A stretch of 64,000 nucleotides of DNA from Myxococcales bacterium (GTDB lineage: Bacteria; Myxococcota_A; Polyangia; Haliangiales; Haliangiaceae). Below the pieces are notes generated by a model that saw only the letters and a program-made list of their open reading frames with translations, searched no databases and was not told where the DNA came from. Of the stretch, positions 17,997 through 56,949 are shown one piece after another. Position 1 is the first letter of the stretch, and each line of letters opens with the position of its first letter. The stretch is taken from the NCBI GenBank assembly GCA_016707895.1, contig JADJGV010000034.1:757625-821624 (forward strand), read 5' to 3'. A program made the translations under genes and the position numbers.

Positions 17997-19577
17997 ATGA
18001 GCGCCATGTCCTCCGATCGCGAGCTCGCCCACCGCCACGACGCCGACCACGATCCGCGCAAGCGCCCGGCCGACCGCGAGGCCGCGGACGCGCCGCCGCC
18101 CGACCTCGCCGGCGTGGTCCAGGCCAAGGCCGACGGCGGCCGGGTCGCGCTGACCGGCGACCAGGACGTCCGGGCCGCCGCCGCCACCGGCGTGCAGTCG
18201 GGCGGCAGCCAGCTGCCGCACCTCGACAAGATCCAGGCGTCGTTCGGCGGCGCCCACGATCTGTCCGGCGTGCGCGCCCACGTCGGCGGCGAGGCGGCCG
18301 CCGCCAGCGCCCAGATGGGGGCCCAGGGCTACGCCACCGGCTCCGACGTCGCGTTCGCCCAGCAGCCCGATCTGTTCCTCGCCGCCCACGAGGCCGCCCA
18401 CGTCGTGCAGCAGCGAGAGGGCGTGCAGATGAAGGGCGGCGTCGGCCAGGCCGGCGACGTCTACGAGCAGCACGCCGACAAGGTCGCCGAGCGCGTCGTC
18501 GCCGGGCAGTCGGCGGCCGATCTGCTGCCGGCGTCGGCCGGCGGCAGCGGCGGCGCGGTGCAGATGTACAACGAGAAGGTCATCAGCGGCGAGGCCTGGC
18601 GGGTCTCGGAGTCGGGCAAGTCGATGCTGAAGGAGGAGGACAAGCTCCAGGATCTGTTCGCGACCAACGATCTGATCGCGACCGCCAACGCCGCGCTCAA
18701 GACCGCCGGCGACAAGGGCTCGTTCATCTCGCTCAAGGCCGGCGCGGCGTCGCTGAAGGTCGGTGAGAACACCCTGCACCGCGTCGAGCCGGTGATGAAC
18801 CCGACCGGCACCGACGCCGCCAACGACATCCTGCGCGAGGCCAACAAGGACGGCGCCGAGGACAGCGCCGGCGAGACCGACGACTCGATGGCGCTGTGGG
18901 CCGACTGCGGCCGGTCGTCGCGCACCATCATGGGCACCGACGGCCAGGGCCAGGCGCCGCACGCGAAGTACAAGGACGGCGGCGGCACCGCCACCACCGG
19001 ACGCTCGTACAACCCGGCCACCTACTCCGACGAGATCTACCTCAAGGAGGTGCCCAAGTTCCTGAAGAGCGCCGAGGCCGCGGCCTACCTGAAGGACGGG
19101 GTGCACTACGACGCCGGCGACAAGACCGCGCTCAAGACGCCGACCACGGCGGACGAGGCGCGCGCGATGTACTGGGAGCTGGGCGAGGACGGCCGCCGTG
19201 CGTTCGACAAGTTCGCGGGCATCAACACCGCGGCCGATCCGGCGATCGGCGGCGCGTACACGATGAACACCGAGTACAAGATGCCGGGCTCCGGCGTGGT
19301 GCCCGGCAAGAAGCGCTGGAACTTCCACTGGGGCGGCGTGATCCTGAAGGACGGCAGCAACAACGTCACGCTCGAGAACTACGCGGTCGGCTTCGCCGCG
19401 ACCGGCGACGCGGCCAAGGACGCGGAGAACCGCAAGCGCGCGTACGACTGGGTCAACCACGACTGGAACTTTCAGATGTACGGTACGGCCAAGAAGGGCC
19501 AGAGCTTCCATGAAGAGCACCTCGACACCGGGACCCACGGCACCCGGGCCAGCACGTTCGCCGCGCAGGTCGACTAG
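17997..19577 (+). CDS. DUF4157 (zincin-like HExxH metallopeptidase) protein with a large C-terminal domain of unknown function; putative toxin or effector
   Basis: The N-terminal region matches the DUF4157 pattern ([19 protein letters not shown] ... [29 protein letters not shown]). The C-terminal roughly 330 aa are K/N/Y/W-rich, are not recognisable, and contain Cys and His candidates (LWADCGRSS). Start candidates are ATG 17997 and ATG 18006, both in frame. GGAGG lies about 20 nt upstream of 17997. Confidence 0.75.
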
Positions 19578-19580
19578 TGT

Positions 19581-19648
19581 CCTTCGAGGGCTTGTCGCCA
19601 AGCCCTCCCCCATGGGGTCATGCCCCCATGGGGCCCCCTCCCAAGACG
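19581..19648. repeat. Intergenic palindromic element, copy A (reverse orientation relative to copy B)
   Basis: AGGGCTTG-TCGC-CAAGCCCT hairpin followed by CCCCATGGGG-TCATG-CCCCCATGGGG. The reverse complement aligns along its length with the element at 56864..56930, with paired substitutions that preserve both palindromes. Confidence 0.65.
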
Positions 19649-20163
19649 CGAGACTCCCGGCGCCACGTGGCGGCGTGCTCGTGCTCGCGCTCGCGCTGAT
19701 GCTCGCCGCGTGCAACGGTTCGAGCTCACGCGGCGGCGAGCCGACGGTGGCCCGGCCGTCGAGCGCGGACGCCGCCGCGGCGATCGTCGCCCCTTCCACC
19801 GAGGACGCCATGCAGGAACCCACGCTCCCCGTCATCCGCGCCGTCACCGACGTGGCCGCGCACTTCGGCGCCCGGGTCGAGGCCCACGGCACCTACGCCG
19901 TGCTGTCGACCGGCCGCCACAAGATCATGTACACCCGCGCCGACGGCTCGACCGGCGCTACCAACAAGGTGGCGCAGCTGGCGCTCGACGGCGGCGGCGC
20001 GATCGAGCTGTGGGTGCGTCCCGACGACGAGCTGGCCACGCTGGGCGGCAAGCGCGTCGTGGTGATCGGCAAGCTCGTGCCGCCCGCCGCGGAGGCCGAC
20101 GGCGTCGCCGCGCCCGACGGCGGGCCGAGCCTGGTCGAGATCAGCTCGGTCGCCGCCGAGTAG
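19612..20163 (+). CDS. Lipoprotein immediately downstream of the DUF4157 gene; candidate immunity protein
   Basis: A lipobox (LALALMLAACNGSS) is preceded by Arg residues. The start is uncertain: ATG 19612 lies inside the repeat element, and GTG 19675 is the alternative. The mature part is about 150 aa with no recognised domain. Confidence 0.5.
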   Translation: MGSCPHGAPSQDARLPAPRGGVLVLALALMLAACNGSSSRGGEPTVARPSSADAAAAIVAPSTEDAMQEPTLPVIRAVTDVAAHFGARVEAHGTYAVLSTGRHKIMYTRADGSTGATNKVAQLALDGGGAIELWVRPDDELATLGGKRVVVIGKLVPPAAEADGVAAPDGGPSLVEISSVAAE

Positions 20164-42144: not shown

Positions 42145-42276
42145 CGCGCCTTATATACAGCGCGGGGGCCGAAAGCGCGATGAGCGCCCGGAGGCGCTCA
42201 TCCTCGATCGATCAGCCGGCGGTCCTCGCTCACACCAGGGAGGGCTGGCGAAGCGAGGTGCCCCGCCGAGGATCTC

Positions 42277-42338
42277 GCGTTTCGGGTGGGGGGCCCCACG
42301 TCTTGTGGGGGAGGGTCTTTGCGAAAGACCCTCTCAGA
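42277..42338. repeat. Intergenic palindromic element, copy C (divergent variant)
   Basis: GCGTTTCGGGTGGGGGGCCCCACGTCTTGTGGGGGAGGGTCTTTGCGAAAGACCCTCTCAGAG. It shares the GGGTGGGGGCCCC ... GGGGGAGGG block and the AGGGTnTTT-GCG-AAAnACCCT hairpin with the copies at 19581 and 56864. It abuts the stop codon of the gene at 42340. Confidence 0.55.
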
Positions 42339-42339
42339 G

Positions 42340-44181
42340 TTACTGCGGTGGGGGCCAGCCGCCGCCCTGGGGCGGCGGGCCACCGAAGCCACCCGGCGGC
42401 GGGCCACCCTGCGGCGGCGGGAAGCCACCCGGCGGCGGGCCACCGAAGCCCGGCGGCGGACCGCCCGGGGGCGGGTAGCCACCACCCGGCGGCGGGCCGC
42501 CGAAGCCACCGCCCTGCGGCGGCGGCGTGTTGTTGCCCTTCACCATCTTCATGACCTCGTCGTACGCGGCCGGCGCCGTCAGCATCAGCACGCCGAAGTA
42601 GGCCAGCAGCATCAGCAGCGAGCGGACCAGCATCAGGAACCACTCGACGAACTTCACGTGGTCGCCGTGGATCAGCAGCGCCAGCATGAACAGCACGATC
42701 TGCACCGGCAGCCACACCAGCAGCGCCGCGGTGGCGTGCGGCGCGAAGGCGTCGACGGCCTGGAGCGCCGGCGGCAGCTTGCGGGCGGGGACGACGAACA
42801 CCGCACACGCGGTCGCCACCAGGCACATCACCAGCAGCAGCAGCGCGTAGACCTTGAACATCGCCCCCTTGAACAGCCCGCCGGCGAAGTCGCCGTCGAA
42901 GTGGTTCAGGACGTTGGTGGTGATCGTCACCGTGCGCGACTCGCGGTCGGCGTCGATGCCGTCACCCGCGAAGATGCCGAGCAGGACCATGCTGGCGCCG
43001 ACGGCGATGATGATGCGCGCGGCCTGATCGTCGGGGCGCTGCAGCCGCGCCAGCAACCCGAACAGCAACGTCGAGATGCCGATCGTGTAGAAGAACGTCA
43101 GGCCGATGCTGCTCGGTCCTTCGGAGATCGTGGCGATGCCGTTGACCACCACGCCGATGAACGACACGCCGAACGGCAGCCACTCGAGCACCACCGGCGG
43201 GATCTTCGCGCGGATGTCCTTGGGCGCGACCGACACCAGCAGATACGACGCCGCGGCGAGCAGCGGCCAGATCAGCCCGCGGAACGCGCGGCCCTTCCAG
43301 GCGAACGTGAGCGGGCTGAACTTGACCGGGATGAAGATCGCGATCGCGAGCGCGGCGCCCAGGATCATGAGCGCCATGCGCTGCAGGTCGGGATCGCGCA
43401 GCTTGGCCAGCGGCACGCCGAACAGCGTCCCCGGCTGCGACTGAGGCAGCTTGCGCGCCCAGTCGTCCATCGGGCCGGGCAGGTTCTGCTGCGGCGGGGC
43501 GAACGCGCCCTGCGGCGGGCCCGCGAAGCCGGGCGGCGGACCACCGGGGGGCGGGCCACCGAAGCCGGGCGGCGGACCACCGGGGGGCGGGCCACCGAAG
43601 CCGGGCGGCGGACCACCGGGGGGCGGGCCACCGAAGCCGGGCGGCGGACCGCCAGGCGGCGGACCCCCAAAGCCAGGCGGCGGACCGCCGGGAGGCGGGC
43701 CCCCGAAGCCGGGCGGCGGACCGCCGGGAGGCGGGCCCCCGAAGCCGGGCGGCGGACCGCCGGGAGGCGGGCCCCCGAAGCCAGGCGGCGGACCGCCGGG
43801 AGGCGGGCCCCCGAAGCCGGGCGGCGGACCGCCGGGAGGCGGGCCCCCGAAGCCAGGCGGCGGACCCCCGAAGCCGGGCGGCGGACCCGCGGGCGGCGGC
43901 GGTGACGCGACCGGCGGGGGCGCAGCGACGGGCGGCGGCGGCGCCACCGGCGGCGGCGCGGCAGGCGGAGGCGGCGCGGCGGCCGGGGCCGGCGGGCCGG
44001 GCGGCTTCGGCGCGGTCGCGGGGCCGAGCTTCGGCGCCGCGTATCCGAACATCGTCTTGGCGGGGCCGCCGCTCGGCGCGGCCGGCGCCGCCGGCATCGG
44101 CCGCCCGCACGTGCCGCACGCCGGCGCGGTCATCAGCACGGCCGCGCCACAGAACGGGCACGGCCTGGTTGGTGTCGCCAT
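42340..44181 (-). CDS. Zinc-ribbon protein with Pro/Gly-rich repeats and a polytopic membrane domain
   Basis: The N-terminal zinc ribbon is CPFCGAAV ... CGTCGRP. About 190 aa of GPPPGFGGPPPG repeats follow, then eight or more TM helices, then a second Gly/Pro-rich tail. The ATG at 44181 has GGGAGAGAG 10 nt upstream. The ORF track continues upstream as an antisense proC artefact. Confidence 0.7.
   Translation of the reverse strand: MATPTRPCPFCGAAVLMTAPACGTCGRPMPAAPAAPSGGPAKTMFGYAAPKLGPATAPKPPGPPAPAAAPPPPAAPPPVAPPPPVAAPPPVASPPPPAGPPPGFGGPPPGFGGPPPGGPPPGFGGPPPGGPPPGFGGPPPGGPPPGFGGPPPGGPPPGFGGPPPGGPPPGFGGPPPGGPPPGFGGPPPGGPPPGFGGPPPGGPPPGFGGPPPGGPPPGFAGPPQGAFAPPQQNLPGPMDDWARKLPQSQPGTLFGVPLAKLRDPDLQRMALMILGAALAIAIFIPVKFSPLTFAWKGRAFRGLIWPLLAAASYLLVSVAPKDIRAKIPPVVLEWLPFGVSFIGVVVNGIATISEGPSSIGLTFFYTIGISTLLFGLLARLQRPDDQAARIIIAVGASMVLLGIFAGDGIDADRESRTVTITTNVLNHFDGDFAGGLFKGAMFKVYALLLLVMCLVATACAVFVVPARKLPPALQAVDAFAPHATAALLVWLPVQIVLFMLALLIHGDHVKFVEWFLMLVRSLLMLLAYFGVLMLTAPAAYDEVMKMVKGNNTPPPQGGGFGGPPPGGGYPPPGGPPPGFGGPPPGGFPPPQGGPPPGGFGGPPPQGGGWPPPQ
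43526..43900. repeat. 36-bp tandem repeat, about 10-11 copies, inside the CDS, encoding GPPPGGPPPGFG
   Basis: GAAGCCGGGCGGCGGACCACCGGGGGGCGGGCCACC and close variants recur in tandem. Confidence 0.85.
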
Positions 44182-53524: not shown

Positions 53525-53545
53525 GGACCGCAACGCACCCGCGCC

Positions 53546-54856
53546 TTAGCGGCCACCCGCCTTTGCGGATCCCCGCGTTCTCCTGGCCGGTGGGGCCTGG
53601 GATCGGCGGCGCTTGCGTGCCGCCGGCGGCGTCCTGACTTCGGCGCCCGCCTGAGCCGGAGCCGCCGCGACCTCGCCGCCAGCATGCGGCGGCGCCACCG
53701 CTTGTTCGCCTTCCACGTGGGATGGCGGCGCCCCGTACGGCCGCCCATCGGCGTGCACGAACCGCAGCTTGCCGGGCGCAGTGCCGACGATCTGTAGCCG
53801 ACCATCGTGCGCCGCCTTGTGGTGCGCCGAGCAAAGCGCCGTCAGCTTGGTCGGCGTGTGATCGCCTCCCTCCACCCGCGGCACGATGTGGTGCACGTCG
53901 ACGTACCGCGCGTTGCGGCACCCCGGCACGACGCACCGCCCGCGATCCCGCCGCAGCACGGCGCGCCGGGTCCGCGGCGGGATCGTCTTGGTCACCCGCG
54001 CGGGCTCGTCACCGTCGACCCGCCCGAGGAGCTCGGCGTCGCACGACGCCTGCGCCAGCTCCGTTTCACTGATCTCGATCGTGTGCCCGGCCACGTCCTG
54101 CCAAGCGCGGAGGCAGTCGGGGCACCGCGTGATCGCGATCTGATACATGGGCCTGGACGCCGCCGCGGCATCTCCCGCGTGGGATCCCGCCGCGGCATCT
54201 CCCACGTGGGAGCCCGCGCCGGGCAGCTGGCCATCGCACAAGGTCGCGAGCAGGTCGCCATCGGTGAGCGGGTGCCCGCACGCCGCCTCCAGCGCGCGCC
54301 GCGCCGCGGTGAACTTGCCCCGCACCGCCGCCGGCAGCAGCAGCCGCAGCTCGTGCAGGCGCGCGGCGGGGGCCGGCGGATCCTCCGGCGAGTCGCCCCG
54401 CCGCCGCCCGCTCACCATCTCCTCGATCTCCCGCACGGTGTGCTTGGCCGCCGCCGTCAGCCACGCCGCCTCGGTGTCGACCGTCGCGACCCGGGTCAGC
54501 TCGCGCGCGGCGCTGTACGCGACGTCGCCGGCGGACATCGCCGCCCGCAGCTTCGGCAGGACCGCGAGCGCGTCGGCCACCCGCAGCCGCTCCCGCGCCG
54601 GCCCCGGCGCGTAGCCCAGGATGCGCTCGACGTACTCGAAGAACGTCGCGAAGCCGAACTCGCGATGGACGCCGAGCGCCCGCGCGCGCCGCAGCCACGC
54701 GGCCTCCTCGACGTCGAGCGCCGCCCGCCGCCGCGCCAGCCCGCGCAACGTCCGGTCGACCTCGCGCCAGTCGTCCGCGGCCGCCGCGCCAGCCGCCGCC
54801 GCGGCGGCGGCCGCCGCCTCGCTCACCTTCAGTCCGCCCGCTGCACCGTCCACCAT
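53546..54856 (-). CDS. HNH endonuclease with an N-terminal DUF222 domain (13E12-repeat family)
   Basis: C-terminal HNH motif: CVVPGC ... VDVHHIVPRVEGGDHTPTKLTALCSAHHKAAHDG. The N-terminal DUF222-like helical region is present. The start was chosen at ATG 54856. The upstream part of the longer ORF, which reaches 55078, coincides with low-GC palindromic DNA. Confidence 0.7.
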   Translation of the reverse strand: MVDGAAGGLKVSEAAAAAAAAAGAAAADDWREVDRTLRGLARRRAALDVEEAAWLRRARALGVHREFGFATFFEYVERILGYAPGPARERLRVADALAVLPKLRAAMSAGDVAYSAARELTRVATVDTEAAWLTAAAKHTVREIEEMVSGRRRGDSPEDPPAPAARLHELRLLLPAAVRGKFTAARRALEAACGHPLTDGDLLATLCDGQLPGAGSHVGDAAAGSHAGDAAAASRPMYQIAITRCPDCLRAWQDVAGHTIEISETELAQASCDAELLGRVDGDEPARVTKTIPPRTRRAVLRRDRGRCVVPGCRNARYVDVHHIVPRVEGGDHTPTKLTALCSAHHKAAHDGRLQIVGTAPGKLRFVHADGRPYGAPPSHVEGEQAVAPPHAGGEVAAAPAQAGAEVRTPPAARKRRRSQAPPARRTRGSAKAGGR

Positions 54857-54904
54857 GCCCAGGCCCTCAGCAAGCCGCACGCCAGCCGTAACCCCGCGAC
54901 GCCT

Positions 54905-55010
54905 GGCGCCGCGTGTCCGAATCTCGGACATAATGGCCGGATTCGTCCGGTTTCGTCCGGCGTTCCGGCCATCCCCGGACAGCCGCGGGTGTCCGGCGCC
55001 GGACACCCCG
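54905..55010. promoter_or_regulatory. Palindromic operator-like sites upstream of the HNH gene
   Basis: TGTCCGAATCTCGGACA (54913..54929) and GTGTCCGGCGCCGGACAC (54988..55005) share TGTCCG/CGGACA half-sites. Between them lie direct TTCGTCCGG repeats. Local GC is lower than in the surroundings. Confidence 0.4.
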
Positions 55011-55144
55011 CAGCCCTCGCCGCCCCGATGCGCCCGGCGAAGCAGCCCGGCAGTGACCGGCATTGGGGTTGGCGCCAAGCGTTCGGCGTTGGCTTGGGCG
55101 ACCGCGACGGAGCGCCGAGCCGTGCTGCATCCGGAGCCGGCGGT

Positions 55145-56803: not shown

Positions 56804-56863
56804 TACCGGGAGGGTAGGGCGCGGCCGTCCATCTCGTCAACACGTCCGGGCTCTCGCGGGTTT

Positions 56864-56930
56864 GCGTCTTGGGTGGGGGCCCCGCGGGGGCATGACCCCG
56901 CGGGGGAGGGTTTGGCGACAAACCCTCAGC
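56864..56930. repeat. Intergenic palindromic element, copy B
   Basis: GCGTCTTGGGTGGGGGCCCCGCGGGGGCATGACCCCGCGGGGGAGGGTTTGGCGACAAACCCTCAGC. It has two self-complementary CCCCGCGGGG blocks and an AGGGTTTG-GCGA-CAAACCCT hairpin. It lies in a divergent intergenic region. Confidence 0.65.
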
Positions 56931-56949
56931 AGCGGGGTACCGTGCCTGG

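Follow-up and report, generated by a model that had tools for sequence, protein, structure and literature searches.

Three short palindromic stretches in a 64,000-nt segment of a Myxococcales genome (the window; 75% G+C) raise the question of what kind of element they are: a coincidence of base composition, a structured RNA or protein-binding site, a device of the host acting at the ends of its genes, or a repeat that moves. An earlier note on the window had proposed that they are copies of one hairpin-bearing unit whose stems change in a paired way, and had read this as selection on secondary structure in a REP/MITE-like element, a small RNA or a protein-binding hairpin. The answer developed below is that they probably belong to a non-autonomous, recently mobile repeat.

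Layout of the three window copies

Read on the G-rich strand, which defines the forward direction throughout, the copies share the plan that had been proposed for them: GCGTYTYGGG-W-GGGGG, a hairpin (H1), a single G and a second hairpin (H2). All three lie where the earlier note had put them, with slightly wider limits, and their parts are as follows.

19586-19660, minus strand: copy A
19586..19607, minus strand: H2 of copy A, GAGGGCTTG-GCGA-CAAGCCCTC, with a 9-bp stem and a GNRA loop
19608..19633, minus strand: H1 of copy A, CCCCATGGGG-GCATGA-CCCCATGGGG, with a 10-bp stem
19634..19660, minus strand: G block GGGAGGGGG and 5' tag CCGGGAGTCTCGCGTCTT of copy A
56851-56927, plus strand: copy B
56851..56879, plus strand: 5' tag CTCTCGCGGGTTTGCGTCTT and G block GGGTGGGGG of copy B
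56880..56905, plus strand: H1 of copy B, CCCCGCGGGG-GCATGA-CCCCGCGGGG
56906..56927, plus strand: H2 of copy B, GAGGGTTTG-GCGA-CAAACCCTC
42273-42333, plus strand: copy C
42273..42293, plus strand: 5' tag TCTCGCGTTTC and G block GGGTGGGGGG of copy C
42294..42310, plus strand: short H1 of copy C, CCCCAC-GTCTT-GTGGGG
42311..42333, plus strand: H2 of copy C, GAGGGTCTTT-GCG-AAAGACCCTC

The 5' tag of the window copies is (C)TCTCGCGTYTY, followed by the G block GGG-W-GGGGG; H1 is clamped by CCCC/GGGG and H2 by GAGGG/CCCTC in A, B and C alike, with the single G between the hairpins. The paired differences that first drew attention to these sequences are there: the H2 stem carries CTTG/CAAG in A, TTTG/CAAA in B and TCTTT/AAAGA in C, and the core palindrome of H1, two arms of CCCCATGGGG in A, becomes two arms of CCCCGCGGGG in B, a change of four substitutions that keeps two base pairs. 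The H1 of copy C is shorter (CCCCAC-GTCTT-GTGGGG). Alignment by software leaves the similarity intact, and folding yields two adjacent hairpins on either strand at each copy (MFE from -34 to -60 kcal/mol when 84-91 nt around a copy are folded).

In a genome of 75% G+C, a chance likeness of G+C-rich hairpins is the first explanation to be weighed, and taken singly GGGGGCCCC and GGGGGAGGG are not rare in shuffles of the window. The combined patterns, however, far exceed shuffle expectation: a 20-nt head pattern (<=3 mismatches) occurs three times in the window against 0.06 expected, with none of 100 shuffles reaching three, and the H2 pattern occurs four times against 0.31 expected. A covariance model built from 48 copies, all of them from other genomes, and run over the whole window with filters off returns exactly A, B and C (63.8, 62.6 and 48.6 bits; E ~1e-10 to 1e-7), its weaker matches being reverse-strand echoes of the A, B and C hairpins or lying at chance level. 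Together with the more than 100 copies of the same architecture in other genomes that a wider pattern scan brings up, the shuffles and the covariance model refute chance similarity, to which we assign next to no probability.

Distribution of the family and pairing of its hairpins

That wider scan used the pattern GGGGGCCCC-N(4-34)-GGGGGAGGG-N(9-20)-CCCTC on one genome per species, a search that itself imposes part of the clamps' invariance and leaves the hairpin interiors free. It finds at least 107 loci in species-representative genomes, where the search for further copies that the earlier note had suggested might have stopped at three. Three of these at least 107 matches lack hairpin complementarity and are chance (Acidobacteriota, Dehalococcoidia and Streptomyces); the remaining matches listed are all from Myxococcota, under the labels Kofleriaceae, Sandaracinaceae/Sandaracinus, Nannocystaceae, Polyangiaceae/Polyangiales and Sorangiineae. 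Cultured carriers among the matches listed are Plesiocystis pacifica SIR-1, Enhygromyxa salina SWB007, Paraliomyxa miuraensis SMH-27-4 and Nannocystaceae ST9; Myxococcus-type genomes do not appear among the matches listed. The closest homologues of the window's Maf and of its 327-residue protein are labelled Kofleriaceae.

Several genomes contribute at least 10 loci apiece to the scan, and near-identical variants are private to each genome, a pattern that within-genome amplification would produce. At loci L007, L037, L042, L062, L064, L077 and L097 the copies form direct tandem arrays, whose period is 72-114 nt; among the loci examined, inverted pairs are rare and were seen only in L030 and L086. 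The part of the unit that lies 5' of the hairpins spans 10-20 nt in the window's own lineage and up to ~100 nt elsewhere, with extra hairpins, and in several lineages the conserved unit is 40-100 nt longer at its 5' side, carries additional covarying hairpins and totals 95-155 nt. At the other end, a position-specific profile of the G-rich strand has an A-rich 3' flank, with an A-rich tail (CARAAA) directly after CCCTC in most lineages. A scan of viral contigs gave five matches, two of them short look-alikes and none informative; the look-alikes, on IMG/VR contigs of 63% G+C (L175 820-860 and L176 3743-3779), read GGGGGCCCC-short H1-GGGGGAGGG-H2-CCCTC and may be chance matches or host-derived fragments.

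Among 101 distinct core sequences there are at least 86 variants of H1 and at least 69 of H2, whose interiors differ yet stay complementary; the stems, of 6-13 bp in H1 and 8-10 bp in H2, are nearly always uninterrupted. Complementarity of the unconstrained interiors is 76% in H1 and 88% in H2, against 47% and 57% when 3' arms are swapped between equal-length copies. Pair counts were made on equal-length classes, because a MAFFT alignment of the full unit misregisters H1 where G runs differ in length. Among these sequences, which are related to one another, the 25-nt class of H1 has double changes in seven of seven variable pairs, and 94.3% of its cells pair, a level that none of 500 shuffles attains (77.6%) and that falls to 55% or less once the register is shifted; for the equal-length class of H2 the figures, from related sequences again, are 97.7% and 88.6% (0 of 500). 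Within single genomes, copies that are otherwise identical have T-A, G-C or C-G as the pair beside the H2 clamp. The claim of covariation, originally made on three copies, is strong well beyond them. Paired changes in DNA palindromes can also come from self-templated correction, without any selection, and are therefore by themselves no proof of selection on an RNA.

As to which strand folds, G-U pairs number 21 on the G-rich strand and 8 on the other, the G-rich strand is the more stable in 84 of 97 variants, and GNRA loops of H2 number 10 on the G-rich strand and 1 on the other; since these counts are small and the sequences not independent, they give a hint, and no more, that the G-rich strand is the folding strand. 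The same excess of G-U pairs and GNRA loops, the lower folding energy and the strong covariation are what one would look for in small RNA genes or riboregulators read from the G-rich strand, antisense to gene 3' ends. Yet no promoter-like or terminator-like signals flank the copies: scans for sigma-70-like promoters at A, B and C, and for canonical terminators on both strands there, find none. There is no corresponding Rfam family either: Rfam 15 at the gathering threshold gives no match in the window, the best match of copy A at a relaxed threshold scores 13.6 bits against gathering scores of at least 37, and 18 related loci yield tRNAs only. High copy number, direct tandem arrays, an in-frame intragenic copy and genome-specific sequences are, moreover, the properties of a repeat, and an origin as small RNA genes is accordingly very improbable.

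Scarcely better placed is the proposal that a host protein, for example a nucleoid or topology factor, binds the copies as double-stranded or cruciform DNA where supercoils accumulate behind genes. Binding of gyrase and IHF has been proposed at E. coli BIMEs; a location at gene ends would suit such a role, as would the conserved blocks, among which GGGWGGGGGCCCC and GGGGGAGGG flank H1 as a homopurine mirror repeat. Against this, the interiors vary freely provided that pairing is kept, which suggests that a hairpin and not a duplex sequence is the recognised object, and rapid gain and loss between close relatives (see below) argues against an essential architectural role; we regard the proposal as improbable. 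Three further candidates suggested by GGG-W-GGGGG...GGGGG-A-GGG and by GGAGG/CCUCC in H2, namely G-quadruplex, H-DNA and Shine-Dalgarno/anti-Shine-Dalgarno mimicry, were weighed from sequence alone and set aside because the C runs that pair with the G runs are conserved and covary as ordinary stems.

Filled and empty sites and the ends of genes

Relatives with flanking proteins 94-96% identical lack all three window copies at the corresponding sites. Site A was compared across metagenome orthologues of the upstream eCIS_core/DUF4157 gene: the element is present, with one H2 substitution, on a contig with 100% identity; it is absent next to the 94% and 89% orthologues, where a TGA stop abuts the lipoprotein gene; a diverged copy of another subtype, with a different junction (TGA|GAGGG), accompanies the 83% orthologue; and the 41% orthologue is again without the element. 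In element-free relatives the genes flanking copy A abut or overlap. The tag CCGGGAGTCTCGCG of copy A recurs in the copy at L116 and is missing from the empty sites. Site B is empty in relatives whose 327-residue protein is 96, 83 and 80% identical; their spacer measures 65 nt against 146 nt, with TCGCT in place of 86 nt of the window, and the DNA inserted relative to these empty sites is 56851-56936. Site C is empty in relatives with Maf 95, 91, 74 and 70% identical, and the 91% relative keeps TTCTGAGAGGCTCC, a possible footprint. The other subtype at site A in the 83% lineage and this possible footprint at site C imply a history that is not one simple insertion, and absence at an orthologous site can also be explained by deletion of an older copy. 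The window copies are recent insertions or otherwise unstable.

Site C has a further stretch that the empty sites of its relatives lack:

42216..42272, plus strand: extra 57 nt adjoining copy C

Read from its sequence, the stretch forms a hairpin CCTCGCT...AGCGAGG around an H2-like GGGAGGGCTGG core and may be what is left of an earlier, decayed copy, or else belong to copy C as a longer 5' arm; in the former case site C would have been hit twice.

An insertion of another kind lies at L022 2226-2285, where the element is inserted into a flavin monooxygenase gene without breaking its reading frame; the product gains 47 residues that the closest homologues (504, 504 and 499 residues; 85-89% over the whole query) do not have. 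It is flanked by a 5-bp direct repeat, CTGAA, the only clean candidate for a target-site duplication that was seen. Comparison of filled with empty sites at A, B and C uncovers neither terminal inverted repeats nor a target-site duplication, and no consistent duplication. Insertion polymorphism at all three window sites, with the in-frame insertion at L022, lends direct support to the REP/MITE-like reading put forward in the earlier note.

A separate length polymorphism was observed at 53534-55130, where the window has ~1.6 kb containing an HNH-domain ORF (53546-55078, minus strand; the HNH motif alone matches known models) that neither L168, a relative at 96% identity, nor L171 possesses. In L168 these convergent genes are separated by ~70 nt of GGTCGC/GGTCCC simple repeat. 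Nothing visible connects this second lineage-specific insertion with the hairpin element.

In 42 of the 115 copies listed, an ORF on the opposite strand, counted when of coding-type GC3, has its stop 0-38 nt past H2, with a mode of 5-8 nt; the mirrored test on the 5' side finds one in 104 copies. A profile over the copies likewise has a peak of reverse-complemented stop codons at offsets 6-8. Along the coding strand of the upstream gene the usual order is stop, 5-8 nt (often U-rich), H2', H1', CCCCC-W-CCC and the lineage-specific part, the C-rich strand being the one in the sense of that gene at stop-adjacent copies. The stop context CTGAG is found at 33% of element-adjacent gene ends and 9% of other predicted ends (odds ratio 5, p = 2e-4, against a background ORF set that is crude and noisy).

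Within the window, copies A and C conform to this rule and B breaks it, which agrees with the context first described for them (A and C 3' of stops, B between divergent genes). Copy A begins 8 nt past the TAG stop (19575-19577) of the plus-strand eCIS_core/DUF4157 gene, and copy C ends 6 nt short of the TAA stop (42340-42342) of a minus-strand gene for a Pro/Gly-rich protein. Copy B occupies a divergent intergenic region of 146 nt, forward relative to the downstream enoyl-CoA hydratase gene, and ends 22 nt short of that gene's GTG start (56950). The stop codons at A and C differ from those of all relatives, TAG at A and TAA at C where the relatives have TGA; at site C a second in-frame TGA abuts H2 (TAA CTC TGA GAGGG), and element-free L164 reads TGA TTC TGA GAGG. 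These changed stop codons may bear on the mechanism of insertion.

Some details of the neighbouring genes were recorded in passing. The lipoprotein frame downstream of copy A (19510-20163) is open through the element to an ATG in the upstream gene, and an in-frame ATG within H1 of copy A lies in the same frame. The gene upstream of copy C (42340-44139) encodes a long, Pro/Gly-rich, repetitive C-terminus of PPPGGF/PPPQGG units whose repeat number differs among relatives L162-L167; its product has no match in Pfam. Elsewhere in the family, a copy at L041 3278-3337 lies within an array of ~11 tRNA genes, where it has the same orientation as the genes and precedes one tRNA by 6 nt, and copies adjoin groES/groEL in three genomes (L023, L025 and L047). 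Two of the groEL copies stand 6-7 nt past the stop, both in Sandaracinaceae, and are possibly an orthologous conserved site; the copy at L023 is in the groES-groEL spacer.

A position so close behind stop codons invites the explanation that the unit is a cis-acting 3'-UTR element of the host (a terminator that dispenses with a U-tract, a barrier to 3'-to-5' exonucleases or a ribosome-stalling device) that has spread because it is useful. Tight spacing of 5-8 nt, fixed orientation, very stable hairpins and clamps kept across several Polyangia families would fit a host function too, and E. coli REPs within 15 nt of a stop reportedly cause ribosomes to stall and translation to drop (work cited in PMC12306157). 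Several observations speak against it. On neither strand are the hairpins followed by a U-tract, and the scan for terminators is empty; the 94-96% relatives, with genes otherwise intact, lack A, B and C; copy A is inserted between genes that abut in relatives, and B in a divergent 5' region, with another copy in a tRNA array and another in an ORF; and it is the strand complementary to the mRNA that G-U pairs and GNRA loops speak for. Site C, furthermore, retains its own conserved hairpin plus CTTTCGG downstream: at ~42180-42215, in the minus-strand reading, a hairpin ATGAGCGCCTCCGGGCGCTCAT is followed by CGCGCTTTCGG, upstream of maf and a TATATAA box. This hairpin is downstream of the site C insertion and kept in all relatives L162-L167, and it probably serves the Pro/Gly-rich protein gene as native terminator, or else has a regulatory role; the element is accordingly not required for termination there. 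A useful 3'-UTR element is therefore an unlikely origin of the family, though less so than a small RNA gene or a duplex binding site, and host function at the mRNA 3' end is possible as a secondary effect.

Proposed mobilisation and comparison with known repeat systems

The reading that we prefer, a non-autonomous and recently mobile palindromic repeat of a Polyangia branch, REP/BIME-like and MITE-like, is the probable one, and it is supported by genome-specific copies, hairpins that keep their pairing, lack of coding, proximity to stops, arrays, occasional intragenic copies and turnover between genomes ~95% identical in protein. The element has no gene of its own, and no transposase gene turned up beside the copies. 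A tblastn search of 848 kb around ~110 copies with approximate queries for E. coli RayT and IS200 TnpA finds no match, though a distant or distal RAYT might have escaped it; a Pfam scan of 55 window ORFs finds no transposase domain; and all-against-all clustering of 666 ORFs from element-bearing loci brings out no recurrent neighbour beyond Ser/Thr kinases, TPR proteins, sigma factors and groES/groEL.

A scheme can be put forward. An enzyme acting in trans would mobilise the elements, and what it would recognise is the pair of clamped hairpins, together with the G block, when the G-rich strand is single-stranded. The analogy is with the recognition of hairpins by IS200/IS605 and RAYT enzymes, and it is on this analogy and on the strand asymmetry that such an enzyme is tentatively proposed, with somewhat more doubt than confidence; recognition of clamped hairpins, as proposed, would leave the interiors free to change while pairing. 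Insertion would prefer a context that contains a stop codon, C-TGA-G/T, and purifying selection would clear insertions elsewhere. E. coli REPs have been shown to affect mRNA 3'-end stability or translation termination; once inserted, the present element would place a very stable double hairpin a few nucleotides behind a stop and may likewise affect either, as a by-product and not as the cause of the family's existence. A bolder version, which we consider rather unlikely, is that of an old mobile element persisting vertically in Polyangia, with non-RAYT machinery, homing to C-TGA-G/T in fixed orientation and recognised through its G-rich-strand hairpins and G block; if true, it would make a new class of site- and strand-specific hairpin element, possibly with a new enzyme partner.

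Small palindromic repeats are known mostly from Proteobacteria, and no account of repeats of such a kind in myxobacteria was found in the searchable literature. The double-hairpin family is to that extent previously undescribed; its kind is known, and its novelty lies in how the unit is built, in its fixed orientation, in its range across Polyangia and in the enzyme that is missing. It is a clean case, with clamps across Polyangia families, dozens of covarying variants, a near-fixed orientation to stops and turnover at ~95% protein identity. Clamps, covariation, orientation and turnover make questions testable in cultivable hosts (Plesiocystis, Enhygromyxa and Nannocystaceae ST9): which enzyme mobilises the element, whether it targets a stop context, and what a double hairpin 5-8 nt behind a stop does to translation termination and mRNA decay. 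The copies are also markers for strain typing, and likely cause contig breaks and gene-calling errors (spurious long ORFs, extra in-frame peptides) in high-G+C MAGs.

Among known systems, intrinsic (Rho-independent) terminators share with the family G+C-rich stem-loops directly downstream of genes; they differ in that here no U-tract follows the stems, a U-rich stretch instead preceding the hairpins in the mRNA sense in many lineages, and in that the copies are dispensable in close relatives. Like MITEs (Correia/NEMIS, ERIC, RUP, BOX, SMAG), the elements are non-autonomous, structured, intergenic, dispersed, 50-150 bp long and polymorphic for presence or absence. In classical MITEs, however, the terminal inverted repeats match those of a parent IS and target-site duplications are regular; neither is found here, bar CTGAA in L022. 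Rickettsia palindromic elements, which Ogata et al. are said to have described in 2000, reportedly insert in frame into genes and are translated as an extra peptide, as does the small palindrome in L022 with its 47 residues; but that is one intragenic case among ~120 copies of a family that is overwhelmingly intergenic and stop-adjacent, and there is no sequence similarity. The MIRUs attributed to Supply et al. (1997) are said to be 40-100-bp elements of a high-G+C genome that lie between operon genes in one orientation, near or overlapping stop and start codons. Copy A resembles them in lying between genes that abut in relatives, with the downstream frame open through the element; MIRUs differ as variable-number tandem repeats without sequence similarity to the present family, which is defined by covarying hairpins.

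The closest comparison is with the REP/BIME/REPIN of Enterobacteria and Pseudomonas, which are mobilised by RAYT (TnpA_REP) Y1 HUH transposases. A RAYT (PF01797) is encoded by a single-copy gene flanked by the repeats; here none was found with approximate queries in the 848 kb around ~110 copies. REPs are usually genus-specific, unlike the present clamps, which are common to several families of an order- or class-level group. The unit itself is composite, with two different adjacent hairpins (and up to three more), invariant G/C clamps and a single-stranded G block; orientation to the upstream gene is close to fixed, which also sets it apart from REP, and the arrays are direct where those of REPIN and BIME alternate, inverted pairing being no rule of the family (two pairs seen). 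The REP likeness claimed at the outset holds for a mobile palindromic repeat and fails for the canonical head: CGTC does occur ~10 nt upstream of H1 in A and B (GCGTCTTGGG), but C has CGTT and other lineages carry GAGTCGGG, GGCTCGTGGG, GGAGCGGG or CAGTGAGG in its place, so that the family has no common GTAG or CGTC head and its conserved element is GGG-W-GGGGG. With REP, BIME and REPIN it shares short, G+C-rich imperfect palindromes in many extragenic copies, and with REPs genome- or lineage-specific sequence, many copies within 15-20 nt of an upstream stop, clusters or arrays, lack of terminal inverted repeats and of coding capacity, and occasional copies in ORFs (PMC3733652; PMC12306157). 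REPs near stop codons and within ORFs are documented in other bacteria (PMC3733652; PMC12306157). Given the lack of a GTAG/CGTC family head, the direct arrays and the RAYT search, what is claimed is a resemblance to REPs and not membership of the RAYT-REP system.
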